This document shows, in pieces, positions 1,945 to 38,623 of a DNA stretch of 64,000 bases. Both the position numbers and the translations under genes were made by a program. This stretch comes from Candidatus Omnitrophota bacterium (GTDB lineage Bacteria > Omnitrophota > Gorgyraeia > Gygaellales > Gygaellaceae). The notes beneath the pieces are model-generated. The model worked only from the letters and a program-made list of their open reading frames with translations. It was not told where the DNA came from and made no database searches. The DNA lies in assembly GCA_018400015.1 (NCBI GenBank), contig JAGYNB010000001.1, positions 6,815-70,814 of the forward strand, written 5' to 3'. Each line of letters opens with the position of its first letter. The first letter of the stretch is position 1.

Positions 1945-2979
1945 ATGTTCTCGCCAAAACCAGAATTAAAAATCATATTTTTAGAAACTACCACAGCATG
2001 TAATCTTAATTGTGTTCATTGTAGGCGTAAAGTTTCTCATTTTGAACGCCAAAACGGCGAGCTTATTTTTAAGCAAATCACGGATTTAATAGATGAGGTT
2101 GTTGATTTTGCTAAGCCGTTTATTGTTTTAAGCGGCGGAGAACCGCTTTTAAGAAATGACATTTTTGAGATAGCACGCTATATTAAAAGTAAAAATTTAA
2201 AAGTCGGTCTTGCTACCAATGCGGTTTTGATAGACGAGCTGAAGGCGGAAAAAATAAAACAGGCAAAAATTGACATTGTAAGCGTAAGTATCGACAGCAT
2301 TGACGAAAGCGCTCATGATGCATTCCGTAATAGCCGGGGCGCTTTTAAAGCTACCTTAGAAGGCATAAGGTTATTAAAAAAACATAAAATCGCTTTTCAA
2401 ATCAATACAACCGTTACCAAACATAATTACTTGCAGATCGCGCAGATGACCACATTTAGTAAAAACTTGGGTGCATCGGCGCTTCATCTTTTTATCCTTG
2501 TGCCTGTTGGTTGCGGAAAAAAAATTCCTGTTAATGATATGCTCTCAAGCAGAGAATGCGAAGGCTTGTTAAGGCAGGTATTTTTAATGAATAAAAATAA
2601 CGATTTTAATATTCGTCCGACATGCGCCCCGTTTTTTGCAAGAATATCCGACGATAACAGCAAAACAAAGGCGGGCGGTTGTCTTGCCGGTAAAAGTATT
2701 ATTTTTGTTTCTTCAACCGGGGAAGTTTTTCCCTGTGGATATTTTGATCGCCCTGTGGCGAATATTAAAAATATCGGATTAAAAAAGATATGGCAGGAAA
2801 ATAGTTTTCTAAAAAAGCTAAGAGATCCTTTAGAATTAAAAGGGAAATGTTCTATTTGCGAATATAAAATTAGTTGCGGTGGGTGCCGGGCAAGAGCGTT
2901 TGCTCAGACTGGGGATTATTTTGCCCAAGACCCGGTTTGTAATTATGCGCCTGCTAAGTTGAGTGAAATAAAAAAATGA
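1945..2979 (+). CDS. Radical SAM enzyme with C-terminal SPASM domain (AhbD/NirJ/PqqE/anSME-like)
   Basis: CNLNCVHC (CxxxCxxC) near the N-terminus. C-terminal seven-Cys tail: ...CSICEYKISCGGCRARAFAQTGDYFAQDPVC. Its stop overlaps the next start (ATGA). Confidence 0.85.
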   Translation: MFSPKPELKIIFLETTTACNLNCVHCRRKVSHFERQNGELIFKQITDLIDEVVDFAKPFIVLSGGEPLLRNDIFEIARYIKSKNLKVGLATNAVLIDELKAEKIKQAKIDIVSVSIDSIDESAHDAFRNSRGAFKATLEGIRLLKKHKIAFQINTTVTKHNYLQIAQMTTFSKNLGASALHLFILVPVGCGKKIPVNDMLSSRECEGLLRQVFLMNKNNDFNIRPTCAPFFARISDDNSKTKAGGCLAGKSIIFVSSTGEVFPCGYFDRPVANIKNIGLKKIWQENSFLKKLRDPLELKGKCSICEYKISCGGCRARAFAQTGDYFAQDPVCNYAPAKLSEIKK

Positions 2980-3767
2980 GAGAAATTGCAATTTACGGTA
3001 AAGGCGGAATCGGCAAAAGTTTTATTGCCAGCCACATATCTTATTGTCTTGCCGAAAAAGGTTTTAATGTTTTGCAAATTGGTTGTGACCCAAAACAGGA
3101 TAGCTGTGCGTTATTGCTCGATCGCAAAAGGATTCTTTCGGTTTTGGATTGGTTGAAAGAACGCGATTTTAATAAAGAAGATATAAATACGGAAGAGTTT
3201 ATTTTTGCTGTCAGCAAAAATAAAATCACCAACGGCAAAGTTTATTGTATAGAATCCGGAGGTCCTGAACCAGGCGTGGGTTGTGCAGGTAAAGGTATCG
3301 CCGAGGCTGTAGAGCTTATTAAGCAAAGCGGCCTGCAGCAGAGAAAAAAAATAGATTTTACTATCTACGATGTTTTAGGCGACGTAGTCTGCGGTGGTTT
3401 TTCGCTGCCGATAAGAGAGGGCTTTGCCAAGGAGATTTATATTGTTACTAGTTCCGAGCCAGAGTCCATTTATGCCGCTGTTAATATTTCTAAAGCGATA
3501 ATTAAATTTTCTCAAAGATCCGGAGCGAAGCTTGCAGGGATAATCGGCAACTCTAGAAACGGCCGTACAAATGAAGACCGGCTTAATAATTTCGTGCACA
3601 TATTAGGCTCTAATTTATTGGGCATAGTACCTTTTGAGGATATTTATGAAACCGGGATCAGCAAGGATACAGCTGTTTATAGCAATATAAGAACATTAAC
3701 GGAAAAAATAATTGCGCAACCTAATTGTACAATCCCTAAAAATATTGACTCAGAACAAATTTATTAA
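2976..3767 (+). CDS. Nitrogenase iron-protein-like ATPase/reductase (NifH/BchL/CfbC family)
   Basis: P-loop YGKGGIGKS. Both cluster-Cys motifs are present: CIESGGPEPGVGCAGKGI and DVLGDVVCGGFSLPIREG. 263 aa. Confidence 0.85.
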   Translation: MREIAIYGKGGIGKSFIASHISYCLAEKGFNVLQIGCDPKQDSCALLLDRKRILSVLDWLKERDFNKEDINTEEFIFAVSKNKITNGKVYCIESGGPEPGVGCAGKGIAEAVELIKQSGLQQRKKIDFTIYDVLGDVVCGGFSLPIREGFAKEIYIVTSSEPESIYAAVNISKAIIKFSQRSGAKLAGIIGNSRNGRTNEDRLNNFVHILGSNLLGIVPFEDIYETGISKDTAVYSNIRTLTEKIIAQPNCTIPKNIDSEQIY

Positions 3768-3770
3768 ATT

Positions 3771-5009
3771 TTGAATCAAAAAGCGACAATAAACTTAGAG
3801 CATACATGTTCTACTTTGCAGGCGCTGGCAACGCTTAATAGAATTGATGGCGTAGTTGCGGTATTGCACGCCAACAGAAGTTGTTCGTTTTGCATGCAGA
3901 TTGGTTCTTTTTCCTGTGCCAAAGCCGGTTTTCCCGTGCTTGTCTCGACAGAGATCGAGGCTAAGGATTTAATTTTTGGAGCCGAGAAAAAACTTAAAAA
4001 AACAATATTGGATGTGTTTGAACGGGTTTGCCCTCAAGCCATAGTTGTGTTAAATACCTGCACAGCGCAAATTAATAATGAGGACATAGAAGGATGTTTA
4101 AGCGCGCTAAGAAAGCAAATCCCTTGCGTTTTAAGTTTCTGCAATACAGGATGTAATATTTTGGGTTCACAGAGCGCGGGTAACGATTTTGCGTGGCAGG
4201 CGTTATTAAAACAAATTACACCTACGGATAAGAAAATTAAAGCTATTGGTCTTCTCGGCCGTTCGGGGATGGACACCGGTTCCCTTTCAGGCATAGAAGC
4301 CATTCTTGATAATTCAGGCATTGGTTATTTTTCTTTTCCGCAAAAAACCTTTCAAGAAACACACAAGATTACTTTGGTAAAAGACATTTTTGTTTTAAGC
4401 CCGGTTCCTTATTTTTCGTGCAAGACGTTAAAGGATAGGTTCGGCGTGAATTGTCATTATGGGGAGGTTCCAGCAGGCATAGAGGCGACAACCAAATTCC
4501 TTTTATTGTTGGCGGAGCACACCAAAAGCAAAAAACTTATTGATGTAGTAAAAAAAGAAAAAGCCAAGATTTTGCCAAAAGCAGGGTTATTAAAAAGTAA
4601 GCTTAGGGCAAAAAGACCGAATGTTTTATGCGCCTATGGTCCGGGCAATGAGTTTTCCATCGCCAAGATCCTCGCTGAATTCGGCGCGAACGTTTTTTTA
4701 TTAACCCAGCTGGACAATGAGTTTGCCAAGAAAGAAAAAATGATATTGAACGATAGGTACGGAGTAAACGTTTTAGATGATTCACCTGCGGATATACAGC
4801 AGATTATAGAAGAAAATAAAATCAACGCTGTCTTTACTGAGATTCAGTTTCCCCGAAAGCTGATTTCAAACAGGCCAATTTTTTATAATATGTTTTATTC
4901 TGGAGAATACGGTTATGGTTTTGCAATCAATTTTGTTGAAAACTTTCTTAGGTGTATAAATAATAAGGCCTACTATCAATGGGGGAAAATTAATGAACGC
5001 TATAGATAA
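3771..5009 (+). CDS. Nitrogenase component-1-like subunit (NifD/NifE/BchN-like)
   Basis: 412 aa. The N-terminus carries a cluster of Cys (HTCST, RSCSFCMQ, RVCPQ, NTCTAQ) as in the NifD/BchN fold. It is translationally coupled to the NifH-like gene, with a TTG start 4 nt after the upstream stop. Confidence 0.65.
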   Translation: MNQKATINLEHTCSTLQALATLNRIDGVVAVLHANRSCSFCMQIGSFSCAKAGFPVLVSTEIEAKDLIFGAEKKLKKTILDVFERVCPQAIVVLNTCTAQINNEDIEGCLSALRKQIPCVLSFCNTGCNILGSQSAGNDFAWQALLKQITPTDKKIKAIGLLGRSGMDTGSLSGIEAILDNSGIGYFSFPQKTFQETHKITLVKDIFVLSPVPYFSCKTLKDRFGVNCHYGEVPAGIEATTKFLLLLAEHTKSKKLIDVVKKEKAKILPKAGLLKSKLRAKRPNVLCAYGPGNEFSIAKILAEFGANVFLLTQLDNEFAKKEKMILNDRYGVNVLDDSPADIQQIIEENKINAVFTEIQFPRKLISNRPIFYNMFYSGEYGYGFAINFVENFLRCINNKAYYQWGKINERYR

Positions 5010-6518
5010 ATGAAAGATTTAAGAATAAAAAAAATATATAGGCCTACATTCGTAGAAGGGGTATTTTGGACGCTTGCCGGGATAAAAGATGCGGTTGTTG
5101 TGTTTCATTCTCCCGGAGGTTGTTATGTTTCTCAAATGCAGACTTTATTGAGCCTCGATGAACCTTACGCTGATTTTTACACAAGCAACCTTTCTATGCC
5201 CAGCTTAATTATTTCTGGAGAGGATAGATTAAAAAGCGTTCTTGAGAAAGCAAAAGTAAATTCGAGCGATTGTTTGTTCGTTATCGATTCAGTGCCCGCT
5301 AGCATGATCAAGGAGGATTTAGACGGGGTTGTCGAATGTTTTGGGTTTAAGAATGCCGTTGTATTGAATGTCGATTCGGATAAAACCTTGAATGAAGGCA
5401 GAGATTATGCTTTGCTTAGACTTCTGCCCATGATGCAAAAGGGTTTAGAAAAAAAAGACAAAACTGTTAATATTATCGGCCCCACATGCTGTATGTATAA
5501 TTGGCGTTCAGATGTAGCTGAAATAAAGCGCGTTCTTAATGATATCGGGGTCAGCGTAAATACAGTTTTGTGCGCAGGCTGTACGCTCGAACAGATAAAA
5601 AAAGCGCCCCAGGCCCGTCTTAATCTTTGTGTATACCCGCATGATTGCGGATTGAGTCTTGCAAAGAAGATGGAGAGCAGTTTTAATATTCCGTACTTTA
5701 AAGATGTTGTTCCTATTGGTTTTGAGCAAACCGCAAACTGGCTGGAGCAGGTGGCCCAATTTTTTTCTTTGGATCCCAATGATTATTTGAAAAAACAGAT
5801 GAAAGAAGCAATGAGGTTCATGGATTCTAATTTTATTTTTTCTGTTAGTCATGATTCAAAAGCAGCATTAAGCGTGCAAAATCATAATACTTACGCTTTA
5901 GGGATAAGCCGGTTTTTGCAAAATGAATTAGGCACGGAGGTTTCCGCAGTAATAACTACCGATAAGAATATTCATAGCAAGTTAAGAAATGATGTTGGGC
6001 GCGTATTATTTTCTCCCGATATCAATCAGATAAGAAGTTTATTTATAGAAGTCTGTCCTACAGTCGTATTAGGCAGTTTTTACGAATTTGCCATCACTAA
6101 AGAAGTTGGGATAAAGAATTTTCTTTATTGCGATATACCTATGCCGAAAAATATCATTACACAAAGTTCTCCCTATATGGGGTTTAGGGGAGCGGTAAAT
6201 TTAATCCAACAGATAGCCACTCAGACGATTTCCAGCCTGTTTATAGATGCCAAAAGCGATACGGATGTTGAGCTTGGCAAGTCTGTTGTGAAATGGGAAC
6301 CTTTTGCTATTTCTGCGTTGGGCGAGATTGCAGAAATGATCCCTTATTTTGTAAGGACCGTGGCAATTAAAAAAATAAAACTGGAAGCAGAACAGTTGGC
6401 AAAAAAGCTGGCAACTCCAGTAGATACAGATATTTTAAGGCGCTCTCTAGAAAAAAACAGCCATTTTAGAAACAATCAAAAAGTCGATATGATATTTAAA
6501 AAGCAGAACCAGGCATGA
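5010..6518 (+). CDS. Nitrogenase component-1-like subunit (NifK/NifN/BchB-like)
   Basis: 502 aa. HSPGGC motif and the overall NifK/BchB-like pattern. Its start abuts the upstream stop, and its stop overlaps the next gene. Confidence 0.65.
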   Translation: MKDLRIKKIYRPTFVEGVFWTLAGIKDAVVVFHSPGGCYVSQMQTLLSLDEPYADFYTSNLSMPSLIISGEDRLKSVLEKAKVNSSDCLFVIDSVPASMIKEDLDGVVECFGFKNAVVLNVDSDKTLNEGRDYALLRLLPMMQKGLEKKDKTVNIIGPTCCMYNWRSDVAEIKRVLNDIGVSVNTVLCAGCTLEQIKKAPQARLNLCVYPHDCGLSLAKKMESSFNIPYFKDVVPIGFEQTANWLEQVAQFFSLDPNDYLKKQMKEAMRFMDSNFIFSVSHDSKAALSVQNHNTYALGISRFLQNELGTEVSAVITTDKNIHSKLRNDVGRVLFSPDINQIRSLFIEVCPTVVLGSFYEFAITKEVGIKNFLYCDIPMPKNIITQSSPYMGFRGAVNLIQQIATQTISSLFIDAKSDTDVELGKSVVKWEPFAISALGEIAEMIPYFVRTVAIKKIKLEAEQLAKKLATPVDTDILRRSLEKNSHFRNNQKVDMIFKKQNQA

Positions 6519-7627
6519 AACAAAATTTTTTAAATAGGGTTCACTTTAAGGTTATTCTGTTTATGGTAAAAAGAGCCATAGGGATAAAAAAGGGCCCAGT
6601 TAAAGTTGGTTTACAGATAACAAAAAGGTGTAATCTTAATTGTGTCCAATGTTCTGTAAAAGATACGGATGATTCTTTTGATGAACTTGACATCCAAGAA
6701 ATCGAAAAAGTTTTATTGAGTCTTAATAAGCTTGGTTGCGGGTTTTTGGTTTTGACTGGAGGAGAGCCTTTGTTAAGAGGCGATATTTGTCAGATAGTCG
6801 AGCTAACTTCCAAGTTTGGTTATACGACCGCACTGGCTACCAACGGGACAATTTTAACAAAAGAAATTGCCGAAAAGCTTAAGTTTGCCGGATTAAGCCT
6901 TTTTCACCTTTCATTAGACGCAGCCACTGCTGATAAACACGATGCCTTTCGCGGCGAAGGATCATTTAAAAAAACGCTTCAAGGTATTAGAATTGCAGTT
7001 GCAACAGGGTTGCCCGTGTGTGTCACAACTACAATAACAAGACAGAACAAAAACGAATTAGAGGAAATAGTAAAGCTTTTAGAAAAAGAAAAGGTACAGC
7101 AATGGTCGCCGATTTTTCTTGTTCCCTGCGGCCAGGCTGAAAAGATATATCACTCGCAAGCGGTAAAAGAAACAAATGAAATCCTGGCCTTATTTGATAA
7201 GTTGTATATAATAGAAAATAAGTTTAATAAAAGAATCAAAATATATATACACGATCCGCACACATATTTTGCTTATCTTTTGTTTAATAAAAAAGCAAGC
7301 TTTATGAGAAGAGTATTTTTTCATATAAGAAAAGGCTGCGGTATCTTAAACAGGTTTACGCTTTATATAAATAGCGACGGCACAATTAAGCCTTGCGCGT
7401 ATTATCCCGAGAGTCTCAAAGAGGTTAATGTAAAAACACACGATTTAAAAGATGTGTTTATAACAAATGGCGAGTTGGCAATGTTAAGAAATAAGCGTGC
7501 CTTAAAAGGTCAATGCAGGGAGTGTAGGTTTCTTTTTTGTTGCGGTGGGTGCCGAGCGAAAGCGCTTATTATAGGCGGAGACCATTTCGTCGAGGAAAAA
7601 AGCTGCCCCTTTTTTTTAAAAAGATGA
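6515..7627 (+). CDS. Radical SAM enzyme with SPASM domain (paralog 2)
   Basis: CNLNCVQCSVK motif. C-terminal ...CRECRFLFCCGGCRAKALIIGGDHFVEEKSCPFF. Confidence 0.85.
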   Translation: MKQNFLNRVHFKVILFMVKRAIGIKKGPVKVGLQITKRCNLNCVQCSVKDTDDSFDELDIQEIEKVLLSLNKLGCGFLVLTGGEPLLRGDICQIVELTSKFGYTTALATNGTILTKEIAEKLKFAGLSLFHLSLDAATADKHDAFRGEGSFKKTLQGIRIAVATGLPVCVTTTITRQNKNELEEIVKLLEKEKVQQWSPIFLVPCGQAEKIYHSQAVKETNEILALFDKLYIIENKFNKRIKIYIHDPHTYFAYLLFNKKASFMRRVFFHIRKGCGILNRFTLYINSDGTIKPCAYYPESLKEVNVKTHDLKDVFITNGELAMLRNKRALKGQCRECRFLFCCGGCRAKALIIGGDHFVEEKSCPFFLKR

Positions 7628-7893
7628 AAGAACAGAAAAAACTATTTTTTCAAAAAATTGCCACCTTGATTTTAATTTTTACTAGTTATGCTTTTAATTA
7701 TTATTGGGTTTTTAACAATCTTTATTGGGTGGGCATTTTGTTTGTTTTGATAGGTTTGTATTTATTTTTTAAGCTTGTCAAAGCAAAAATCATGGCAGAG
7801 ATAGTTTTTTGGTCTTTTTGTCTTGCCACAGTTACGATATTTATCATAAAGGCGATTTATTTTTGGTTTGGAATACACATAAGAACATGTTAA
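7624..7893 (+). CDS. Small hydrophobic membrane protein (2-3 predicted TM helices)
   Basis: Internal ATG of the 7537 ORF, placed right at the rSAM stop. The product is almost entirely hydrophobic (ILIFTSYAFNYYWVF..., LFVLIGLYLFF...). Confidence 0.35.
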   Translation: MKEQKKLFFQKIATLILIFTSYAFNYYWVFNNLYWVGILFVLIGLYLFFKLVKAKIMAEIVFWSFCLATVTIFIIKAIYFWFGIHIRTC

Positions 7894-8132
7894 AAAAAAT
7901 TAAATCCGCATTGTTAAAGACAGGATTGGTTGTTGCTATTTTATTTTGGCATGACTTTTGTCATATTTGGGTTGGGAAAAGGCTTTATTTTATGATTCCC
8001 ATTGTTATAATCATTTCTTTTTATTCAATCATAAAAGCTTTTATGGAAAAGAATATTTACCGTTCGGGAGTTTGGCTGTGGGTATTTTTTTATGCTTCAG
8101 TTAATTTTATTGTTATGGCAATTTACCATTAG
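7887..8132 (+). CDS. Small hydrophobic membrane protein, paralog of the preceding one
   Basis: Similar hydrophobic pattern and similar C-terminus (..NFIVMAIYH versus ..IFIIKAIYFW). The start overlaps the previous ORF's end. Confidence 0.35.
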   Translation: MLKKIKSALLKTGLVVAILFWHDFCHIWVGKRLYFMIPIVIIISFYSIIKAFMEKNIYRSGVWLWVFFYASVNFIVMAIYH

Positions 8133-8135
8133 TTT

Positions 8136-8963
8136 ATGAAAATAGACGCGCTAGAGAAAACGCATTTTAATTATTTTCATTTCCATAAATGGAGCTTTGT
8201 TTTAAGGCAAAACAAGCATTTGTCTTTCTATAAACCATACTGGAAGAATATGGTTGTTAAAATGCACATAGCGCAGGAATTGTTTTTAAAGCACCTAGGT
8301 AGCTTAAAAAAAGAAATATCGATCGATAGTAAAGACACTGAAAAGTTAAATAACTTTTTTATATTCGACGCGGAGAAAATATTGGGTGATGCTAGATTAA
8401 CAGATACACAAAAGCAATGCCTTGATTACAGGATATCCGAACACAGAGAAATAGTCAAAACAGCGTATTTATTGCGCGAAATTTCCGGTCGTTTGGGGAT
8501 TAAGGCGTTGAAAGAAGCCGCCGGTTCTATAAAAAAAGATTTTGCATTGCGTCTTCAGAAAGTCACAGCAGAAAGCATTGATCGCAGAAAGAAAAAGAAA
8601 CTAAGTTTTCGTTATATGTTGGGGGATCACTTTATTACAATAGAAAAAACGCATTCTGCTTGCAGGCTTGTTTTTTTAAATTGCCCCATTTACGGAGTTT
8701 TCCATTATTTAGGATTTATGGCTGAAGGAGAGATTTTTTGTCAGCTGTGCGAAGCTCATGGAGAAATTATGACCAAAAGCAATATTCCAATAAGACATAA
8801 GTTTTCTTTATCGCACAGTCTATGTGCAGGAAGCAAAAGATGTGAATTCTCGATGAATGTTATTAACCCCGCCGTCAATTTATTATTAAAGTGCGTTCCT
8901 GATAAAACAATAAATTTTCTTTTGGGTTTGAGCGAGCCAAAACATATTAAGAATGAGTTTTAA
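8136..8963 (+). CDS. Hypothetical protein with a C-terminal Cys/His-rich region
   Basis: 275-aa ORF in operon context. The C-terminal region is CRLVFLNCPIYGV...CQLCEAHGE...CAGSKRCEF. I recognise no family with confidence. Confidence 0.45.
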   Translation: MKIDALEKTHFNYFHFHKWSFVLRQNKHLSFYKPYWKNMVVKMHIAQELFLKHLGSLKKEISIDSKDTEKLNNFFIFDAEKILGDARLTDTQKQCLDYRISEHREIVKTAYLLREISGRLGIKALKEAAGSIKKDFALRLQKVTAESIDRRKKKKLSFRYMLGDHFITIEKTHSACRLVFLNCPIYGVFHYLGFMAEGEIFCQLCEAHGEIMTKSNIPIRHKFSLSHSLCAGSKRCEFSMNVINPAVNLLLKCVPDKTINFLLGLSEPKHIKNEF

Positions 8964-10041
8964 ATTCCTTTTAGCGGTTATTGCCCACAGGTTTAGATTT
9001 AGCAAAAGTCCCATAGTTGCTTTCTTAGAGGTTACCCAAAAGTGCAATATGAATTGTATATATTGTTCAAGCGACATGGGTTTATCCTCCGGAGAAGAGC
9101 TGAGCTTGGAACAGATCAAGAAATTAATTCGGGATTTTAAGAAGCTGGGTGTTTTTGTTTTTAATATTATTGGCGGCGAGCCGTTGTTGCGCAAAGATTT
9201 AATTGATATTGTACGTTTTGGTGCAAAGCAGGGCCTGATGACCAATATTTTGACTAACGCAACATTGTTAGACCTTCAGACAGCCCAGAATATAAAAAAA
9301 AGCGGTTTGAGCTTGTTTTCCCTTTCTTTGGACGGTTCTAATGAGGCAATTAATTCGTTGACAAGAGGCAAAGGAAGTTTTGAGAGAATTTTAACCGGTA
9401 TCGCTAATGCTATTTCAACAGGTTTGCCGGTTATGGTTAAGATCACCCTGCAGAAACAAAACATCGATGATTTAGAAAATATTGTAAGGTTGTTAATTGA
9501 AAAAAGGGTGAGTTTGTGGACAGCTGATTTTGCCATTCCCTGCGGCAGGGCAAAGGAAATGAGCCCGCTTCAAGATTTTTCAGTACAAGAAAGAGGTAAA
9601 ATTATCGAAAAGATTTATGAGTTGGCGCAAAAGTTTAAAAAACAAATTAGTTTTTTTACAATGGATAAAATTTATTATAATGTTTATTCTTTGAAGCGAG
9701 AAAAGCCCAATGTTTTGCAGAAATTAATGCTTTATTCAAAAGGCGGCTGCGGGGTTTTGGACGGTAATAGCATATATATAAATTGTGATGGTTCTATCCG
9801 CCCGTGTCCATTCTTTCCTTTTGTGTTGCCAGAGGTAAATATAAAAACTCGTAGTGTAATAGATGTGTACCGGTATAATGAATATTTCGGAAAATTACGC
9901 GACAGAAAGAATTTAAAGGGCAAATGTTCAAGGTGTAAATTTAGCTTTATTTGCGGTGGGTGCCGGGCAAGAATATATGCTCAAACCGGAGACTTTTTTG
10001 CCGAAGACGCCTCTTGTGATTTGTTTGAAAGCGCTAGTTAG
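8953..10041 (+). CDS. Radical SAM enzyme with SPASM domain (paralog 3)
   Basis: CNMNCIYCSS motif. C-terminal ...CSRCKFSFICGGCRARIYAQTGDFFAEDASC. Confidence 0.85.
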   Translation: MSFKFLLAVIAHRFRFSKSPIVAFLEVTQKCNMNCIYCSSDMGLSSGEELSLEQIKKLIRDFKKLGVFVFNIIGGEPLLRKDLIDIVRFGAKQGLMTNILTNATLLDLQTAQNIKKSGLSLFSLSLDGSNEAINSLTRGKGSFERILTGIANAISTGLPVMVKITLQKQNIDDLENIVRLLIEKRVSLWTADFAIPCGRAKEMSPLQDFSVQERGKIIEKIYELAQKFKKQISFFTMDKIYYNVYSLKREKPNVLQKLMLYSKGGCGVLDGNSIYINCDGSIRPCPFFPFVLPEVNIKTRSVIDVYRYNEYFGKLRDRKNLKGKCSRCKFSFICGGCRARIYAQTGDFFAEDASCDLFESAS

Positions 10042-12722: not shown

Positions 12723-15700
12723 ATGCGTAAATTTATCAAAAAGGCAATTGCTATTTTTGTATGCTTTGTGTTTGTCTTTGAGCAGGCCGGTTTTGCCCAA
12801 AGCTTAAGCCGGATTGATTTTACTACCCATATAAACACTTTAAACAATCAGTATAGTTATGAAAAGTTTCAACCTGCGCATTTAAGGATGCTTTCTTACG
12901 ATAGATATTCGCAGCAATTTAGTTTTTTGGTCGATAGAGGAGACTACAATAACATAGAAAAAGAATTTTTGAAGCAGGTAACAGATAAGTTGTTTAGGAT
13001 GTTTCTTATCGGTTTAACCCTGCCAGACGATTCATTCTGGGTCAATCTTAGGCCTGATTCTCCCGAAGATATAATTGATAGTAATCTTGCCAAGACAGAT
13101 ATGGGCAGAATTTTTCTTGAGGCAGACCTGCAGCTTAAAAAAGATACAGCACGCTTTACATCTCCAGCAACAAAAGAAGGCAACCTTTATTGGCAGAGGC
13201 TGCAAGAAAAAGCTAATGAGCTTTTTGGGGTTCCAAACGTAAATATTCCTACATTGGCTAGACCATGGATAGTGCCAGGAGAAATAATATTGCGCGAGAC
13301 CGCCAGCGACGTTTATATCTATAAGGCGACTATCAACGTGATGCTCGAAGAAGACTATATAAAAGATTATCCAAGGTTTAATTTTAAGGATAAGCGCATG
13401 AAGGAGTTAAATGAGCATGCCTCAAGGTTGATGCGCGAAATAATAATCCCTCGTCTGGTCAAGGAAGTTAACACAGCTAAAAGATACGCGAGGCTTCGGC
13501 AGGTGTTTTATTCTTTAGTTATGGCGAAATGGTTTAAAGAAAGATTTAAGAATTCATCAGGCCGTTATGTTAGGCTTATCAATCAAGGCAGGCTTGAAGG
13601 TTTATTGTCAAAAGAAAAATGGTCTGTTAAGCCGTATTTTGAAGCCTACCAGAAGTCATTTCAGGAGGGAGAATATGAAATAAAAGTTTTCGGCAAAGGC
13701 GGATCTAACAAGGTAAGAGTTTATTTTAGCGGCGGGGCTTTACCCATGCCTAATGTAATACCTGATCCAGGGGAAACTATTGTTGATTCCGCTACCGGAA
13801 CAACGATAACTTCTATTTCCGCGCAAGAACAAATAGTTTTAGAGCAGGCGCCCCGGATTATCAAACAGGATACAAACGTTTTGATTAGCGAAGGAGAAGA
13901 CGTTTCCATTAATCCCGATGCCGTAGATGAAGACAGAAGATATCATGCTGACGAGAGAGAAAAATATAACCGTATACTTAAGTGGACAGAGACGGCAGAT
14001 CTTTTAAAAAGTGTATGGATCAGAGCATTGTCAGCAATGAATCCGGAAAGAAAAGAAAATCTGTTTAATACCGAAATTGAGCTTTTGATTGATTATCTAC
14101 AGACGCAGAATCCTTTGGGGCAGATTTTAAATAAAGGGAACACCGGCGATAGAATCGTAGTTTTTCAGGTTCCTGGAATTGCCAGGGAAGGTTTTGGCAT
14201 AAAAGACTTAAATGATAAGTTAGGGTACGAGCTTAATACAAGGCTTATCGGTGTTAGAAGGCAGATGATTTCGGAGTTAATGAAAGAAAAAGGGCTTATT
14301 GAAAATGACGGGTTAATTTATAGTACGTACAAAGAAGATGTTTTTCTTGTATCAAGCGATATTCAAATATCGCCGCAGATGTTGCAGGAAATTCAGCATG
14401 AATTGATTGCAAGAATCGGGCAGATTTTAAGAGGCCAATTCGAGTTTAGCAATGCCTTGCGCGTTAATGGTGTTAAGATCCAGCAGTTCAATAATGAGCC
14501 TCTCTATGCTTTAGGTTTTGGCATAGCGCAAATTACCGGTTCTTTGCCGCATGAAAGGATTTTAGCTGACATAAATGCACACCAGGCAATCGTTATAGGA
14601 GAGAATAACGCTGGTTCCAATTACACATTTTCTGAAAAAGATTACAACAAGGTTATTTTCGAGATTGATAGACTTCGTGGTCAACTTAATGAAAATTCGT
14701 ATATTTTTGAAGCAAACGAAGCAGGAGAATTATTTTTGTCACAAGAAGTCGCTGTCGCCCTAAGGGATAATTTGGATTGGGATGGCTTATCAATGCAAGC
14801 GAGAGAACAATTTATAAACGAAGTTAATTTCAATAACGCCAGGCAGTATTTCAGGCTTATTAAAATACAGGATTATATTAAAAAATGGCAGATTGATTTT
14901 GAAAAAGCAAGGGGCCGCTCTCAGCAAATAACCGCTTTAACAGAAAAACTTAAACAGAAGATAGCTCAAAGAGAAGAAAAATATCTTGTACCTATAGATA
15001 ACGAATTGCTTGAATTGGTTGTCCAGGCAAGAGATTTTATTGAAACAGAAACAAAATTGCCGGAGTTTGATTCTGAATTCGCTTTTTACTCCCGCGGTCC
15101 CCCTATGGAGAAGCCGATTTTTGTAACTCTGGATATCAAGAAAATGGGCATTATGAATATAAACGCCAACGAAATAGAACTGCAAAGAGTTTCATCTGCT
15201 CTTCAGTCAGGAGAAGTAGCGTCTTTAGAGGATATTTGGCTTTCGGCCGCAGACAGTGTTACAGAAAATCTTATTGAAACAATGAGAATAGCCAAAGACG
15301 GCATTATCCGAGAATTGGGTATTTCGGAAGATGATTTAACTGTATTAATGGGAGGAGATGAATTTACGTTAGTTTTTGAAGATAATTTGTCTGACAGGTT
15401 AGAAGAAGTTTTATATAAGGTAAAGAACCAGATAAAAGATAAAACTGGGATTGAAGCGAGAATCTGCGCCTCTACTGCAGCTTTAGAATTCGAAAGCGAA
15501 TTTTTTAACCGCAAAGACAATAATTATGAACATTTGGCCTTTGCAAAAACCATTTTAAGTTTAGAGGATGGCATTGCACGGTTAAAAGCATTAGAAAAAC
15601 AAGGCATCCAAGATTTTATAATTATTCAAGATGAAAAAGGTAATTGGCCTGATGTAAAGTCAAGAGTTGAATCAGAAATCAAAAAAGATAAAACTATAAC

Positions 15701-18700
15701 TAGAAGAAGTTTTCTTAGAACACTCGGTTTAGGAACATTGGCTTTAGCAGGCGCAGCTTTTGTCCCTGAATCGGCGAAAGCCGGTATCAGGATGGTTTTA
15801 AGTGATGTGACAGAAGAAAAAGTTTCTGAGTATGAGATGTGGGCGAATCGTTTAGCCGAACTATCCGGGAATAAACAAGAATTTATAGCTGCCTGTAATC
15901 AGCTGCAGCGGCTCATCCATGAAGAAAAAAAACTACATCTTTATAAAGCATACGAAACTGTTATTCAAAGCTCTTTTAATAGATTCCCTCGCGATATTCA
16001 AAGAAGGATTGTTGCTGATACTATAGAATATGTTATTTTCCAGACGGTTAATTTAAAACTTAGCGAACAAGCCAATGCGATTGTTTTAAATTGGCTTTCC
16101 CGCGAAGAAAATCTTAAGTTTGACTCAAAAGACGATTATCAAGTTCAGGCAGATATTGCTTCGCATATAATTCTTTTTTCCTCTAAGTATACCGATACAT
16201 TAGGCAAGGTTTTTAATGGTTATGCAGATGGCGCAATAAAACTCATGAATAAATCAGTTTTCAGGTATTTTGATACGATTAGCAACCAAACTATACAAAA
16301 TAGGTTGATCGATTTTATATCAAATCTCCAGATCAGCGAAAGCAATTTGGATTTGATTAATGAGGTTTTCGCTTCTTTAGGGAGAAAAATCAATGTTATA
16401 CATGATGCAAATGAATATGGCGATTGGCAGGGAGAGATAGTAAAATTTTTAGCTTCTTTTGGAAACAAAGACAGAATATTGCATTTGCTTATTGCTTATG
16501 GAGGCTTTGAACTTTATACGGGAACATTCCAGACTGTCTACAAACTGGCAGAGAAAAGCATAGCGGCAACAGGAGGTATGATTAATTGGTTAAAAAGGGT
16601 CGATGCAGAAAATCTTACCCGTGAACAATTCTTATTAGCCATATCCAGCCGCAATAAGTTGATCGATTTGGTTAGGAATACCAATGCTGATCCGCAGGAA
16701 ATAACGGGCGTATTAATAAATGTATGCGATGTTGTTAAAGAGATAATTGTTAATAAGCACCAGGATAGAAGAAGCTTGGCCTACATATCCAATGCCATAG
16801 AGCAGATATTTCGGTTTGATAACGATCAGGTAAAAGAATATTTAAAAGATATTGTTCTCGCCTTGGCAAAAGAAAACAACCTAACCCTTGTAGTTTTTTC
16901 TTATGTGGTTATTGCTAAGTTTAATGATATTTTTGAAGAAGATATAAAAGAATTTGAAAATGTAGAAAAAAAATTTCTTAATTTAATTAACTATCTTAAT
17001 GCGCCACCAAAAACAGTTTTGATAAACAACCGTTTAGTTGTTTTGGTTGATTATGCAAGTTCAGCTGCAAGTTATTTGGAAGATTTGAAAACCCTTTTTT
17101 CCACTCGTTACAGGTCAAATTATGATATTACTTATCCCAATAAGACAGAGCGGGATGCCGGTATAAAATATAAAATTACCGGGCAGGTTGACGGTATTGA
17201 TATCGAGTTTCATCTTGCAGAAAATATCAAAGGAGAGGATTTTAGAAAAGCTCTCGAGTCCGGTAGGTATTCTATGTTTTGTACAAGACACCATTCTTTT
17301 GAAGGGGCAGAGTTCGCGGGGGTTGGTTCAGATAAGGTATTGCCACAGTTTATTGGTACAATCGGTACTGGCCAAGGAGGAGAAAATAATAGTATGGCAG
17401 TTGTTTTGGCTGAAGAGGTGGCTAAGGCTGTTTCCAGGGATAAACATAACAGTTGGCAAGATATCCGTATGGTGATCGAATCAGGATTAAATCCACAGAC
17501 AGGAAAATTCAATAACGCCGATAGAAGAATGGGTTTGGATAATTTTATTCTTCCAGATTTTCTTGCTAACGTTATGTCATATGTTTTAAATGCCTCTTGG
17601 GATGGATTGCCGGATGCCCAAGAAGTTCGGCCTGTTATTATATTTGACGGCGGATGCGGAGGCGTTAATAGGATTCCCGAATATATCCCCAAGTATAATA
17701 AGGCGTTAGGGAATACGGATTTCTCAAGATTGATTTCTTTGGGTGCGGCTGTTGGCGGGATACAAGGATTAATGAGCGGCAATTTACAGGTCAGCGAGGA
17801 TATTAAGATCGAAATTGATTCAACCGTGGGTTCTAATTACGGATATGGAGAAAGAGTTCCAGAAGAAGAAGTTTTTGAGATTATCAAAAGGGAACGCGAT
17901 GTACAAGAGTTTATGCTTAAAAACCATCCTGAAGTGATACAACAGACGATAGACAATCTTGGTTTTGGTTTTAGTCTAGGCGATTTGGCAAGAATTGTAA
18001 TTTCCTATGAGGCATCCGGAAGCAATAAGCATGTTTTAAAGATCAAAGTTTTTACGGTAACAGGCGAAGAGAAGGCGTTTTTGATAGCTAAAAAAATTCC
18101 AGTAAAAGAAGGGTTTTTATTTGAAGAAGGCGAGGAGTCTGCCCAGCGCAATTTACAAAAAACAGGTTTAGTGCCTAGATTAGGCAAAGTTTATTATTTG
18201 AAAGAAACAGATTCAGGGTTTGAGTATCATGAAAACCCACCAGAAGAAGGCAATTTTGAAACAAGGGTCGCGGAAGAATTTATAAACGGTTTTACTTTAG
18301 CTGAATTAGAGTTTTTTATAGAGCAGTTTTTAGGTACAAAAAAAGCAAGAGAGACAATAAACGGTTTGTTGCAATCTGATCGCGGCAGCAGAGAATATAA
18401 CCTATATCTTGAAAAGTTGAAATCGTTAATTCAAAGTAAGGGGTTTTCAAAGGTTCAGACAGCCAGGCTTATTGAGCTTGCTCAGACCTTGGTGGATTTT
18501 GACAACGAATATAAAATATTGTCCGATGCTGCTGGTCAGTTGTTGCCCGTTAGCTTTATTACTCAGGCTACAAATACTATATTTGATATATTCGCAGCTT
18601 TAAATGAGAACAGCTATTCATTAGAGGCAATATGGTCGCACGATGTTCATTGGAGCAATATAATGTTTGAAAAATCCACAGGCAGGTTAGTCGTAGTTGA

Positions 18701-19382
18701 TTTAGGTAAAACAACAACCGATTCTTTAAATAAATTCTTGCTAGAAACACTTTATTATTATGGTATCAGCGTAGAGCACGGCAAGGGAATTTTAGAAAAT
18801 CTTTTTGTTAATCTAAATGCCGAAAACAGATCGATAGTTTTGCAAACCCTAAGGCCGCTTATAGAGGAAAAAGCAGTTAAGAATTTTCTTTTACAGGCAT
18901 TAAGAGACAGGATCGACACAACGCGCTTAAATAAATTAGATGCTCCGGCAAAAAGGATATCAAAAGCAATTAAGGAATTTTTAGACAGTCAAAAAAGTAA
19001 TTTTGATTCCGGCGGCATAGATTTTACCAATATATCGCCATTGGCATTAGAAGGCAGATCTGTGGCGGAAGGTTTCAGGTTTGACAAACAGGACAGTTTT
19101 TTAAGGGATATGAACGCTTTAATCAATAAGCGTATTATTCCTTCACCAGAAGGCATAAAAGAATATGTTCAGCAAAATTCTGATAAAGAAAACCTGGAAG
19201 ACTTATTAGATGGTGTGTATAATTTGCTGGTTTCAGTATTAAGATTAGAGGAAGAAAAAGTTGTTTTAACAGATGACAAGACAAAAGAATTGCTCAAGGT
19301 TATAGGCTCGACGCACGACTTAACAGATCTACATAACCACTTGCAGGATATAGAGTTTAGCGCCAAAGGGCCAGAGATTTAA
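12723..19382 (+). CDS. Giant secreted or surface protein of unknown function (2219 aa)
   Basis: 6.66-kb uninterrupted ORF in an AT-rich genome. N-terminal signal peptide MRKFIKKAIAIFVCFVFVFEQAGFAQS. RBS AAGGA upstream. I recognise no catalytic domain. Confidence 0.8.
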   Translation: MRKFIKKAIAIFVCFVFVFEQAGFAQSLSRIDFTTHINTLNNQYSYEKFQPAHLRMLSYDRYSQQFSFLVDRGDYNNIEKEFLKQVTDKLFRMFLIGLTLPDDSFWVNLRPDSPEDIIDSNLAKTDMGRIFLEADLQLKKDTARFTSPATKEGNLYWQRLQEKANELFGVPNVNIPTLARPWIVPGEIILRETASDVYIYKATINVMLEEDYIKDYPRFNFKDKRMKELNEHASRLMREIIIPRLVKEVNTAKRYARLRQVFYSLVMAKWFKERFKNSSGRYVRLINQGRLEGLLSKEKWSVKPYFEAYQKSFQEGEYEIKVFGKGGSNKVRVYFSGGALPMPNVIPDPGETIVDSATGTTITSISAQEQIVLEQAPRIIKQDTNVLISEGEDVSINPDAVDEDRRYHADEREKYNRILKWTETADLLKSVWIRALSAMNPERKENLFNTEIELLIDYLQTQNPLGQILNKGNTGDRIVVFQVPGIAREGFGIKDLNDKLGYELNTRLIGVRRQMISELMKEKGLIENDGLIYSTYKEDVFLVSSDIQISPQMLQEIQHELIARIGQILRGQFEFSNALRVNGVKIQQFNNEPLYALGFGIAQITGSLPHERILADINAHQAIVIGENNAGSNYTFSEKDYNKVIFEIDRLRGQLNENSYIFEANEAGELFLSQEVAVALRDNLDWDGLSMQAREQFINEVNFNNARQYFRLIKIQDYIKKWQIDFEKARGRSQQITALTEKLKQKIAQREEKYLVPIDNELLELVVQARDFIETETKLPEFDSEFAFYSRGPPMEKPIFVTLDIKKMGIMNINANEIELQRVSSALQSGEVASLEDIWLSAADSVTENLIETMRIAKDGIIRELGISEDDLTVLMGGDEFTLVFEDNLSDRLEEVLYKVKNQIKDKTGIEARICASTAALEFESEFFNRKDNNYEHLAFAKTILSLEDGIARLKALEKQGIQDFIIIQDEKGNWPDVKSRVESEIKKDKTITRRSFLRTLGLGTLALAGAAFVPESAKAGIRMVLSDVTEEKVSEYEMWANRLAELSGNKQEFIAACNQLQRLIHEEKKLHLYKAYETVIQSSFNRFPRDIQRRIVADTIEYVIFQTVNLKLSEQANAIVLNWLSREENLKFDSKDDYQVQADIASHIILFSSKYTDTLGKVFNGYADGAIKLMNKSVFRYFDTISNQTIQNRLIDFISNLQISESNLDLINEVFASLGRKINVIHDANEYGDWQGEIVKFLASFGNKDRILHLLIAYGGFELYTGTFQTVYKLAEKSIAATGGMINWLKRVDAENLTREQFLLAISSRNKLIDLVRNTNADPQEITGVLINVCDVVKEIIVNKHQDRRSLAYISNAIEQIFRFDNDQVKEYLKDIVLALAKENNLTLVVFSYVVIAKFNDIFEEDIKEFENVEKKFLNLINYLNAPPKTVLINNRLVVLVDYASSAASYLEDLKTLFSTRYRSNYDITYPNKTERDAGIKYKITGQVDGIDIEFHLAENIKGEDFRKALESGRYSMFCTRHHSFEGAEFAGVGSDKVLPQFIGTIGTGQGGENNSMAVVLAEEVAKAVSRDKHNSWQDIRMVIESGLNPQTGKFNNADRRMGLDNFILPDFLANVMSYVLNASWDGLPDAQEVRPVIIFDGGCGGVNRIPEYIPKYNKALGNTDFSRLISLGAAVGGIQGLMSGNLQVSEDIKIEIDSTVGSNYGYGERVPEEEVFEIIKRERDVQEFMLKNHPEVIQQTIDNLGFGFSLGDLARIVISYEASGSNKHVLKIKVFTVTGEEKAFLIAKKIPVKEGFLFEEGEESAQRNLQKTGLVPRLGKVYYLKETDSGFEYHENPPEEGNFETRVAEEFINGFTLAELEFFIEQFLGTKKARETINGLLQSDRGSREYNLYLEKLKSLIQSKGFSKVQTARLIELAQTLVDFDNEYKILSDAAGQLLPVSFITQATNTIFDIFAALNENSYSLEAIWSHDVHWSNIMFEKSTGRLVVVDLGKTTTDSLNKFLLETLYYYGISVEHGKGILENLFVNLNAENRSIVLQTLRPLIEEKAVKNFLLQALRDRIDTTRLNKLDAPAKRISKAIKEFLDSQKSNFDSGGIDFTNISPLALEGRSVAEGFRFDKQDSFLRDMNALINKRIIPSPEGIKEYVQQNSDKENLEDLLDGVYNLLVSVLRLEEEKVVLTDDKTKELLKVIGSTHDLTDLHNHLQDIEFSAKGPEI

Positions 19383-27600: not shown

Positions 27601-27824
27601 CTAACGTCAGCGAGGATATCGAAAACAAGAAAATCGATATTATTATAAATACTCCTATCGGCAGAGAAAGTAAATACGACGATAGCTATATCAGGAAATT
27701 AGCGATAAGGCACAAAATCCCATATATAACCACAACTGCCGCTGCTATTGCTGCAGTTAAAGGGATAGAGGATATCGCTAACGATAAAGCAGATATTAAG
27801 TGTCTACAGGATTATCATAGTTGA
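24630..27824 (+). CDS. carB: Carbamoyl-phosphate synthase large subunit
   Basis: 1064 aa. Duplicated ATP-grasp halves: [24 protein letters not shown] and [19 protein letters not shown]. C-terminal MGS-like domain. Confidence 0.95.
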   Translation: [1064 protein letters not shown]

Positions 27825-28225
27825 TGAACACAAAAAAAATTCAAATCAAAACAAAAACACAAACAGAATTTGTGGATATAACTAGAAACATTAAGGAATT
27901 TATATCCGCAAGCGGGGTCAAAGAGGGTATTTGTATTATCTATGTAGTGCATACCACAGCAGCGCTTACAATAAATGAAAATGCAGATCCTTTAGTTAAG
28001 AGAGATATTTTAAGAAAGCTGAATATGATTGTTCCTTGGGAGGATGGTTATGAGCATGCAGAAGGCAATTCTGCTGCGCACATCAAGTCTAGCATATTGG
28101 GCTTTTCGCAAAGCTTAATTATCGATAATCACGAGCTTATTTTGGGGACTTGGCAGGGGGTTTATTTTGCTGAGTTTGACGGACCAAGGACCAGAGAGGT
28201 ATTTGTTAAAATTATCGTAGGTTAA
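27821..28225 (+). CDS. yjbQ: YjbQ/UPF0047 family protein (secondary thiamine-phosphate synthase-like)
   Basis: TEFVDIT...VHTTAALTINENADP...HIKSSILG. 134 aa. Confidence 0.8.
   Translation: MMNTKKIQIKTKTQTEFVDITRNIKEFISASGVKEGICIIYVVHTTAALTINENADPLVKRDILRKLNMIVPWEDGYEHAEGNSAAHIKSSILGFSQSLIIDNHELILGTWQGVYFAEFDGPRTREVFVKIIVG

Positions 28226-32661: not shown

Positions 32662-32662
<1 letters not shown>
32351..32662 (+). CDS. V/A-type ATPase small coiled-coil stator subunit (G/H-like; NtpF position)
   Basis: 103-aa Lys/Glu-rich coiled coil at the head of the ntp-type operon. Confidence 0.5.
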
Positions 32663-35125
<2,463 letters not shown>

Positions 35126-35130
35126 TAATT

Positions 35131-35541
35131 ATGTCACTGGAAAACATAATCGCACATATTCAATCCGAATCAGATAAGGAAAAACAAGCTATTTTAGATC
35201 AGGCCAAGAAAGATGAGCAGTCTATCATTGAAGAGGCTTGGGCGCAGCGAGATGAGCTTTATAAAGATCTTTTTAAGAAAGAAGAAGAAAGTATTCTTGC
35301 TGAAAAGAAACGTGTAATCGTGAATGAAAGCATAGAAGGTAAAAAAAGGATATTGAAACGTAAGCAGGAATTGATTGATGCACTTTTTCAGCAAGTGGAA
35401 AATTCTTTGAAAAAAAGCGATTTGAAGAAAAAACAAGTGTTTAATGATAAAGAAATAGATGCGCAAGAAGATGTTACAGATTTCTTGAAAAGAATTAGGT
35501 TTGAGCTGGAGCCAGAGATCGTAAAAATTTTATTTTCTTAA
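35131..35541 (+). CDS. ntpE: V/A-type ATPase subunit E (short form)
   Basis: N-terminal E-subunit-like coiled coil. Only 136 aa. Confidence 0.55.
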   Translation: MSLENIIAHIQSESDKEKQAILDQAKKDEQSIIEEAWAQRDELYKDLFKKEEESILAEKKRVIVNESIEGKKRILKRKQELIDALFQQVENSLKKSDLKKKQVFNDKEIDAQEDVTDFLKRIRFELEPEIVKILFS

Positions 35542-35556
35542 AAATAAGGGGAGTAA

Positions 35557-35718
35557 ATGTTTGATTTTTCTAAGTTGTCAGATATGACAAAATTGGCGAA
35601 CGAAGCCAAAAATTTACAGAAACAACAAGAGGGAATGCAAAAAGAGCAAATTTCGCTTTTAAAAGATATCTCTCACAAGCTCGATAAGGTTATTAGTCTT
35701 TTGGAAAAAGATGAATAA
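35557..35718 (+). CDS. Small coiled-coil ORF (54 aa) between the E and C subunits
   Basis: Strong RBS AAGGGGAG 7 nt upstream of the ATG. Absent from the >=60-aa ORF track. Overlaps the start of the C-subunit gene. Confidence 0.3.
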   Translation: MFDFSKLSDMTKLANEAKNLQKQQEGMQKEQISLLKDISHKLDKVISLLEKDE

Positions 35719-36827: not shown

Positions 36828-36859
36828 TTAATGTTTACAGGTAAAATTAATAGGAGTAT

Positions 36860-38617: not shown

Positions 38618-38623
38618 TTTTTT

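Follow-up and report, generated by a model that had tools for sequence, protein, structure and literature searches.

Characterized nitrogen fixation-like (NFL) enzymes carry out demanding reductions in the synthesis of chlorophyll, bacteriochlorophyll and F430 and in anaerobic sulfur salvage, and several NFL clades are still without an assigned function. On contig JAGYNB010000001.1 of a Candidatus Omnitrophota bacterium, genes for a reductase of this superfamily share an operon with genes for three radical S-adenosylmethionine (rSAM) enzymes bearing SPASM domains, which raises the question of what chemistry such a partnership could serve. The DNA analysed here is a 64-kb window of that contig, and our view of the genome is that of these 64 kb. 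The operon (positions 1945–10041) comprises nine co-directional open reading frames (ORFs) on the + strand whose junctions overlap or abut; an earlier note, made from the letters alone, had described such an arrangement, and all nine ORFs were recovered at those positions. The operon is probably a pathway for the reduction and tailoring of a tetrapyrrole. For the more specific reading developed below, in which an ATP-driven reductase of the type of chlorophyllide oxidoreductase (COR) and dark-operative protochlorophyllide oxidoreductase (DPOR) works with three rSAM enzymes of the AhbD/NirJ type in the biosynthesis of a modified tetrapyrrole, we would put the chances at about even.

The second gene of the operon (H; 2976–3767, + strand, 263 amino acids (aa)) encodes an ATPase Fe protein of the NifH/BchL/CfbC family and matches the Pfam family Fer4_NifH with 254 bits (E 2.3e-75). 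The P-loop GKGGIGKS (residues 8–15) and both cluster cysteine motifs, all of them picked out in the earlier note, are present together with a DPKQDS motif. The putative cluster ligands, Cys103 in GCAGKG and Cys139 in DVLGDVVCGGF, align with the corresponding residues of NifH, CfbC and BchL references. A lysine replaces NifH Arg100 in the first of these motifs; the substitution, which had also been remarked on, is real and proved to be family-wide, as the form GC[AG]GKG occurs in nine of the ten family H sequences shown and is a signature of the whole family. In its motifs, H corresponds to Fe proteins that hydrolyse ATP and carry a cluster bridging their subunits. When compared with NCBIfam equivalog models (bit scores, with the curated cut-off in brackets), H reached 254 for nifH (394), 241 for CfbC (402), 177 for BchL (345) and 175 for BchX (331); its identity to BchX is 33.5%. 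Neighbour-joining trees, which are rough and were built on small reference sets, placed H in one clade with the sequences that we group as families A and B (59/60 bootstraps), a clade that falls within neither the NifH/CfbC/NflH cluster nor BchL/BchX, so that H is nested in neither BchL nor CfbC. The references for trees and alignments were annotated BchLNB, BchXYZ and NifHDKE sequences taken from plasmid records.

The two large subunits follow directly. D (3771–5009, + strand, 412 aa, with a TTG start) takes the position of NifD, NifE, BchN or BchY, and K (5010–6518, + strand, 502 aa) is BchB/BchZ-like. As had been observed from the translations, the sizes of H, D and K are close to those of the BchL, BchN and BchB references (299, 438 and 514 aa). 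Both large subunits match Pfam Oxidored_nitro (PF00148), D with 155 bits (E 2.8e-45) and K with 196 bits (E 1.2e-57), and both can be aligned to the NifD/K/BchN/B fold. The equivalog models were missed widely here as well: the best score of D was 72 bits for nifE (505), followed by 43 for BchN (420), 41.5 for the CfbD model methan_mark_13 (268) and 23 for BchY (425), and K scored 146 for BchB (490), 115.5 for BchZ (529) and at most 65 bits for Nif-type models. In the trees D falls among NifD/NifE/NflD-like sequences and K with BchZ/BchB.

Alignment of the cluster ligands, a mapping that the earlier note had proposed, gave a COR-type set of three cysteines in D and one in K. D-Cys13, Cys38 and Cys97 occupy the columns of the three cysteines of BchN, BchY, NifD and NifE. 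K-Cys38 stands in the column of the BchZ cysteine, BchB Asp36 and NifK Cys95, and this column is Cys in nine of the ten family members. The other two NifK P-cluster cysteine columns hold T/S and V/L/P in family K, and four of the six P-cluster cysteines are accordingly present (all three in D, and in K only the Cys95 equivalent). The ligands of the iron–molybdenum cofactor (FeMo-co), NifD Cys275 and His442, are not conserved in the family alignment, where the His column holds F/V/I and the Cys column a gap or SPV. In COR the cluster is bound by three BchY cysteines and a BchZ cysteine at the position of the ChlB/BchB aspartate (PMC13474568), and the ligand columns of D and K are the same as those of BchY and BchZ of S. 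guttiformis.

A sequence search of the PDB gave BchB/ChlB of DPOR as the best matches of K; among the entries for BchB of R. capsulatus, 3aet_B, a variant with Cys at the ligand position in the alignment, scored slightly higher than 3aek_B (76 versus 72 bits). The AlphaFold2 model of K is of moderate confidence (predicted local distance difference test score, pLDDT, 70.8), and its top match in Foldseek was DPOR BchB (3aer_B; E 4e-19, TM 0.64/0.75), ahead of MarK and NifK. The C-terminal helical domain of K matched PCP_red weakly (E 0.0033), and PCP_red is precomputed for 579-aa relatives of K. For D, the PDB sequence matches were NifE, MarD and NifD. We conclude from these comparisons that the reductase is a predicted two-component, ATP-dependent enzyme with one simple four-Cys [4Fe-4S] cluster per D/K interface, COR/DPOR-like in architecture yet a member of neither family. 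The earlier note had found no nifB-, nifEN- or bch-like genes in the window; indeed, the + strand ORFs of at least 120 aa outside the operon were found to include no nifB, nifEN, bch, cfb, hem or cob gene. Since nifB and nifEN are absent, only simple clusters would be required.

The partners of the reductase are rSAM1 (1945–2979, + strand, 344 aa), rSAM2 (6515–7627, + strand, 370 aa) and rSAM3 (8953–10041, + strand, 362 aa). All three carry a CxxxCxxC motif and a Cys-rich SPASM C-terminus, which in rSAM1 correspond to C19/C23/C26 and to seven cysteines between residues 246 and 332. Pfam E-values for Radical_SAM and SPASM, respectively, were 6.4e-26 and 3.8e-7 for rSAM1, 3.7e-30 and 1.4e-5 for rSAM2, and 5.4e-30 and 1.4e-4 for rSAM3. 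With values so far beyond chance, the domain identities given in the earlier note can be accepted for the Fe protein of the NifH family, for the two D/K-like subunits and for the three rSAMs with SPASM domains. In NCBIfam, rSAM1 is the most AhbD-like of the three, with 337 bits for AhbD heme b synthase (cut-off 500), 300 for NirJ2 (500) and 282 for TIGR04053, compared with at most 147 bits for peptide maturase models. rSAM2 scored 198 for AhbD, 185 for TIGR04053 and 172 for NirJ2, and rSAM3 scored 209 for TIGR04053, 202 for AhbD and 171 for NirJ1, all below cut-off; the AhbC model gave at most 158 bits for any of the three (650). The top models for each enzyme belong to the AhbD/NirJ/NirJ1/NirJ2/AhbC/TIGR04053/TIGR04347 group (filling the first eight ranks in the case of rSAM1 and rSAM3), and WgkB, ranked sixth to seventh for rSAM2 and rSAM3, was the sole peptide maturase among the top models. 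None of the 25 top-ranked matches listed for each enzyme was a NifB model. rSAM2 and rSAM3 are paralogues with 38.5% identity, and rSAM1, which is 29–30% identical to them (29% to rSAM2), is a separate lineage. No AhbD/NirJ structure was matched when the PDB was searched with the rSAM1 sequence; the best matches, cytosylglucuronate decarboxylase, PqqE and anSME, are uninformative as to substrate.

Three further proteins are encoded between rSAM2 and rSAM3. TM1 (7624–7893, + strand, 89 aa) and TM2 (7887–8132, + strand, 81 aa) are small hydrophobic proteins without a Pfam or NCBIfam match. Each has about three transmembrane (TM) segments in its hydropathy profile, and their paralogy is apparent when they are aligned with each other and with their orthologues from Candidatus (Ca.) Gygaella obscura, the close relative described below. 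Because the Gygaella orthologues agree, the starts of both were re-set to internal ATGs, giving overlaps of 4 and 7 nt; rSAM1 with H and K with rSAM2 also overlap by 4 nt, and D and K abut. X275 (8136–8963, + strand, 275 aa) is a Cys/His-rich protein for which no fold could be assigned; one source gives it as 237 aa, with the start at Met39. The motifs HFxYFxxHKW, NCPxxGVF and FCxLCEAHG are invariant, as are four cysteines (Cys183, Cys202, Cys205 and Cys236). The only Pfam match, ATC_hydrolase, was below cut-off (E 0.0018) and seen in one of three homologues, and was not used. A word-indexed protein search found no relative besides X275 itself, a metagenome scan with a three-sequence alignment as query returned the two known contigs only, and AlphaFold, run on the single sequence, gave a model too poor to use (pLDDT 33.6).

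In the databases H has one close relative, which is 73% identical and comes from Ca. Gygaella obscura (GCA_030765485.1); all others are at most 47% identical. In Gygaella, a member of the Omnitrophota that has been described as a fermenter, the nine genes are present in the same order with identities of 51–73% (63% for rSAM1, 52% for X275), and the shared neighbourhood reads dnaA-dnaN-gyrB-gyrA-tRNA-Glu-(operon)-glmS-rsmI-giant ORF. The flanking proteins are 90% (GyrA), 84% (GlmS) and 78% (RsmI) identical, values which place the source of the window close to Gygaella; the operon diverges markedly faster than its neighbours, yet is intact. A distant version of the cassette was found on a metagenome contig (L004/L005, hereafter L004) in the order rSAM1-H-D-K-rSAM(2/3-type)-X, with identities of 47% for H, 43% for rSAM1 and 30% for X275. 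It is without the TM pair and the third rSAM, and its sole rSAM2/3-type gene is 47% identical to rSAM3. Two genes past this cassette lies a gene of the CobN/Mg-chelatase family (L004 10176–11408, cut by the contig end; PF02514, E 6e-88). Upstream, L004 encodes an HD-domain protein and a 541-aa protein without a Pfam match.

Relatives of K of about 579 aa are 37–41% identical and carry the PCP_red domain of BchB/BchZ. The K family was scanned with two K motifs in one genome per species across 185,579 species, which returned 17 loci in total, one from Gygaella and the others belonging to family B. The loci of family B considered here are labelled L009–L024, L031 and L032. By the labels of metagenome-assembled genomes, family B hosts are Thermodesulfobacteriota, delta- or gammaproteobacteria, to which a Spirochaetota single-cell genome is added. 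Most of the loci with an upstream region have the layout MarR-H-H-D-K, with two tandem NifH paralogues and a K of about 579 aa that contains two PCP_red-like repeats; no SPASM rSAM gene is adjacent in family B. A CbiX/ferrochelatase-type chelatase recurs as a neighbour at three loci, and other recurrent neighbours are an FAD oxidoreductase, a B12-binding rSAM, a methyltransferase, a PCP_red protein and DUF1302/DUF1329 outer-membrane proteins. Family B appears to be an uncharacterized NFL system in its own right. An exhaustive HMMER search with D against 1.84 billion (1.84e9) representative proteins returned four matches under 1e-30, of which two are fragments and the others represent the Gygaella and family-B types. 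The next best had 74 bits and 27% identity, and the relatives with names at about this level are annotated generically as 'nitrogenase component 1' or as NifE-like and come from archaea and metagenomes. The two best unnamed relatives of H from NCBI sources belong to family B. With so few relatives of D, 17 K-motif loci and two contigs from the X275 scan, the cassette lineage is rare and isolated, far from every characterized group.

We infer a tetrapyrrole substrate from four independent lines: the resemblance of K to Bch subunits, the AhbD/NirJ type of the three rSAMs, the CobN-family gene beside the L004 cassette and the CbiX-type gene beside family B. The proposed pathway is further supported by the D/K ligand pattern, which is that of COR/DPOR with the FeMo-co ligands absent, and by the nine-gene synteny kept in Ca. 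Gygaella obscura. In the mechanism that we envisage, Cys103 and Cys139 of an H homodimer would hold a [4Fe-4S] cluster between the two subunits. With its P-loop and switch I/II regions, the homodimer would hydrolyse MgATP and deliver electrons one at a time to the [4Fe-4S] cluster, a single one at each D/K interface, ligated by D-Cys13, D-Cys38, D-Cys97 and K-Cys38. By homology with DPOR and COR, electrons from this cluster would reduce a C=C bond of the macrocycle in a D/K pocket, which the BchB-like C-terminal helical domain of K may cap. The rSAM enzymes, if they resemble AhbC, AhbD and NirJ in their chemistry, would use 5'-deoxyadenosyl radicals to decarboxylate or remove acetate and propionate side chains. 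More speculatively, X275 could be an accessory metal- or Fe-S-binding protein, and TM1 and TM2 could serve as a membrane anchor for the pathway or for its hydrophobic product.

Several observations weigh against a biosynthetic tetrapyrrole pathway. The matches of the reductase and of the rSAMs to the profile models all lie below the curated cut-offs, and orthology to characterized enzymes is therefore not established. D resembles NifE, NifD and NflD more than BchN or BchY. K Asp272 aligns with Asp274, the proton donor of BchB, but the column is N/K/R in the relatives. Four extra cysteines with complete or almost complete conservation in families A and B (D-C49, D-C124, K-C207 and K-C213), those of K including the motif LNxCxYPxDCG, fall outside the ligand set of a single [4Fe-4S] cluster. 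No tetrapyrrole biosynthesis, chelatase or uptake genes were found in the window. Omnitrophota of this class have been described as fermenters whose cofactor synthesis is incomplete, and some members of the phylum lack the routes to heme and cobalamin. Lastly, the MAR and ISR systems are NFL enzymes that act on non-tetrapyrrole substrates (PMC13474568).

Some of the same observations suit a rival in which the enzymology is retained and the direction is changed, so that a scavenged tetrapyrrole (heme, F430, a corrinoid or a (bacterio)chlorophyll derivative) is converted by the operon: the reductase would reduce or dearomatize the ring and the rSAMs would strip its side chains, which would yield either a cofactor that the cell can use or the freed metal. 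Such salvage or breakdown is attractive because the class has been described as host-dependent with only partial cofactor synthesis, and a cultured relative lyses methanogens. The lack of a precursor pathway or chelatase in the window and the patchy distribution of heme and cobalamin synthesis in the phylum would both fit, and the cluster proteins, at 51–73% identity against 78–90% for the flanks, behave as expected of an accessory, niche-linked trait. We nevertheless consider salvage unlikely, since the operon contains no tetrapyrrole transporter or binding protein, the chelatase genes of L004 and family B point to metal insertion and hence to biosynthesis, and we know of no NFL enzyme that acts catabolically on a tetrapyrrole. 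That the system is instead a reductase of some small molecule other than a tetrapyrrole, like MarBHDK or IsrBHDK, with rSAMs for cluster or cofactor maturation or for substrate processing, we judge improbable. C-S-cleaving NFL enzymes with rSAM partners do exist (PMC13474568; PMC11423573), D is matched best by NifE/NifD-type models and PDB chains, MarD included, and H scores higher with the nifH and CfbC models than with those of BchL and BchX. Yet only four of the six P-cluster cysteines and no FeMo-co or L-cluster ligands are present, the rSAMs are SPASM relatives of AhbD/NirJ rather than of NifB, MarB or IsrB, and K is BchB/BchZ-like with the C-terminal domain of a tetrapyrrole reductase; moreover, the window has no adjacent sulfur-metabolism genes, and it is chelatase genes that lie beside the relatives.

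SPASM domains are typical of peptide maturases, and models for WgkB, PqqE, mycofactocin and sactipeptide maturases were significant, albeit lower-scoring, for the operon enzymes. This brings in modification of a peptide or protein in the manner of ribosomally synthesized and post-translationally modified peptides, with one of the two small ORFs of the operon perhaps as the substrate and the NFL proteins as a source of low-potential electrons. The small ORFs, however, encode paralogous proteins of about three TM segments that show no leader/core organization and are absent from L004, tetrapyrrole-type models score highest for all three rSAMs, and no protease or exporter gene is present. To our knowledge no NFL enzyme takes part in peptide maturation, which also counts against the idea, and we regard it as very improbable. 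A divergent copy of nitrogenase, DPOR, COR or CfbCD would share the superfamily, the H-D-K order and subunit sizes near those of BchL/N/B, all of which are seen here. It is contradicted by the model cut-offs, by the ligand pattern, with Cys for BchB Asp36 and two large subunits unlike CfbD, and by the rough trees, in which H lies outside NifH/CfbC and BchL/BchX; the window offers no nifB/EN, bch or cfb genes, and the host lineage is fermentative, neither phototrophic nor methanogenic. For practical purposes such a copy is already refuted, and we attach next to no probability to it. One may also take families A and B together as an unnamed deep NFL lineage with a mosaic of Nif/Nfl-like D and Bch-like K and a COR-type four-Cys cluster, joined in Omnitrophota by the three AhbD/NirJ-type rSAMs, X275 and the TM pair and dedicated to a novel ring-reduced, side-chain-trimmed tetrapyrrole that the Omnitrophota would make either de novo or from a tetrapyrrole of their host or prey. 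We hold this combined proposal tentatively, at clearly less than an even chance.

Upstream of the operon lie gyrA (200–1702) and a gene for tRNA-Glu(UUC) (1763–1838, + strand), the latter ending 107 nt before the operon. The C5 route to tetrapyrroles starts from Glu-tRNA. The same tRNA gene precedes the operon in Ca. Gygaella obscura (L001 8790–8863) with the same 107-nt spacing, but because the entire region is syntenic its placement is probably a coincidence. A search of Rfam for an upstream riboswitch or other RNA returned a tRNA only, and consensus scans for promoters and terminators gave counts near the shuffled expectation; the strongest upstream site (1710–1737) precedes the tRNA and not the operon. 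In Gygaella, dnaA-dnaN-gyrB-gyrA are immediately upstream, which puts the operon less than about 10 kb from dnaA and presumably near the replication origin on the leading strand. Nearly all sizeable genes of the window are on the + strand, and the GC skew is positive throughout (1–64000). A horizontally transferred island was considered and rejected, as the GC content of the operon (0.371) is close to that of the rest (0.365) and the same genes flank it in Gygaella. Downstream follow glmS, rsmI and then an ORF of 2219 aa without a Pfam match (12723–19382). A similar giant ORF occupies the same place in Gygaella, and giant proteins have been reported as typical of the order Gygaellales. The remainder of the window is housekeeping in character, with a pyr operon, carB, a V/A-type ATPase operon (32662–40611), two-component proteins, the gene for phosphoenolpyruvate carboxykinase and purC. 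Three single-domain response regulators (47174–48300) stand in a row beside a Cache histidine kinase, and two paralogous UPF0047 genes are found at 27821–28225 and 53067–53486.

The earlier note had proposed a pathway for a tetrapyrrole-like or other complex cofactor that was likely novel and matched no described pathway. A tetrapyrrole is the best-supported reading of the operon, but the claim of novelty was overstated and the absence of a described counterpart was put too strongly, because an rSAM-flanked, NifB-less NFL type with a predicted tetrapyrrole substrate was published as Group VI (Meheust et al. 2020). The operon is thus not categorically new; its general kind has been published and is still uncharacterized. 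The new element seems to be the lineage itself, together with its constant association with three AhbD/NirJ-type SPASM rSAMs, X275 and the TM pair. The mosaic of a Nif-like D with a Bch-like K and the occurrence in Omnitrophota also appear undescribed. Literature searches, whether on the gene cluster in Omnitrophota or on NFL reductases paired with SPASM enzymes, turned up nothing specific. According to a 2026 review (PMC13474568), genetic context has been of little help, apart from a link of Group VI to tetrapyrroles that it calls 'tantalizing'. With nine genes, no NifB-type machinery and a simple four-Cys cluster, the operon should lend itself to reconstitution in a heterologous host. If its product were defined, an orphan NFL lineage would gain an assigned chemistry, a new modified tetrapyrrole might come to light, and more would be learned about the cofactor economy of the host-dependent Omnitrophota.

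Among the characterized systems, COR (BchXYZ, NFL Group V) shares with the operon the H-D-K order and a predicted 3+1 Cys inter-subunit [4Fe-4S] cluster in the same columns, and the operon K both clusters with BchZ/BchB and has a C-terminal PCP_red-type region. The differences are that H, D and K fall far short of the BchX, BchY and BchZ cut-offs, that H lies outside BchL/BchX and D nearer to NifE/NifD/NflD, and that the operon, in a fermentative host from the Omnitrophota, has AhbD/NirJ-type rSAMs as partners with no bch genes in the window. DPOR (BchLNB/ChlLNB, also Group V) is similar in subunit sizes and in the three Cys of its D-type subunit, and BchB/ChlB is the best match of K. It is distinguished from the operon by BchB Asp36, in place of which the fourth ligand is a Cys, by the missed BchL, BchN and BchB cut-offs and by its chlorophyll pathway context, which is lacking here. 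The position of the BchB proton donor Asp274 is unconserved in the family, K itself having Asp272 there. CfbCD offers a precedent for a tetrapyrrole NFL reductase outside phototrophy that works with simple [4Fe-4S] clusters, and CfbC is the second-best model of H. In contrast to the two distinct large subunits of the operon, however, CfbD is a single homomeric subunit; the CfbC and CfbD cut-offs were missed, H lies outside the CfbC cluster and the window contains no cfbA/B/E. True nitrogenases (Groups I–III) differ in their complete P-cluster and FeMo-co ligands and in the nifH cut-off that H does not reach, and neither nifB nor nifEN accompanies the operon within the 64 kb.

AhbC, AhbD and NirJ are the top models for the operon rSAMs and have in common with them the CxxxCxxC motif and the Cys-rich SPASM C-terminus. 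The AhbD scores of 337, 198 and 202 bits nevertheless remain below 500, no AhbA/B, NirDLGH or other nir genes are nearby, and, unlike the operon, neither the Ahb nor the Nir pathway includes an NFL reductase. MarBHDK and IsrBHDK (Group IV-C/F) are likewise non-diazotrophic NFL HDK systems encoded with a radical-SAM gene; there, a NifB homologue serves as the rSAM, and the MAR enzyme contains a P-cluster along with a cofactor resembling the L-cluster, whereas the operon has incomplete P-cluster ligands, no L-cluster ligands and SPASM rSAMs.

The closest description is that of Group VI, known from Elusimicrobia with relatives in Gracilibacteria and Myxococcales, which has no NifB, incomplete P-cluster cysteines and many adjacent rSAM genes and was predicted to reduce a tetrapyrrole, perhaps in making a new cofactor (Meheust et al. 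2020). It was still uncharacterized according to a review of July 2026 (PMC13474568). Compared by description only, Group VI and the operon agree in an NflH with cluster cysteines and ATP motifs, at most four of six P-cluster cysteines, no FeMo-co ligands, no NifB, adjacent rSAMs and a predicted tetrapyrrole substrate. They differ in phylum and in their rSAMs, the Group VI paper highlighting B12-binding and HemN_C fusions where SPASM enzymes of the AhbD/NirJ type are found here. No record named as Elusimicrobia or Myxococcales and no non-Elusimicrobia Group VI assembly from Table S2 of Meheust et al. occurs among the 17 K-motif loci, and two cluster look-ups gave no Elusimicrobia-named relatives, the one with H giving almost no names. 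The lack of Group VI names among the K-motif loci, the lack of intermediates for D and the fact that the best relatives of H belong to family B point indirectly to a lineage of the operon that may be separate from Group VI. Should it instead be a divergent member of that group, the operon would be the smallest gene set so far with which to approach the group's function.

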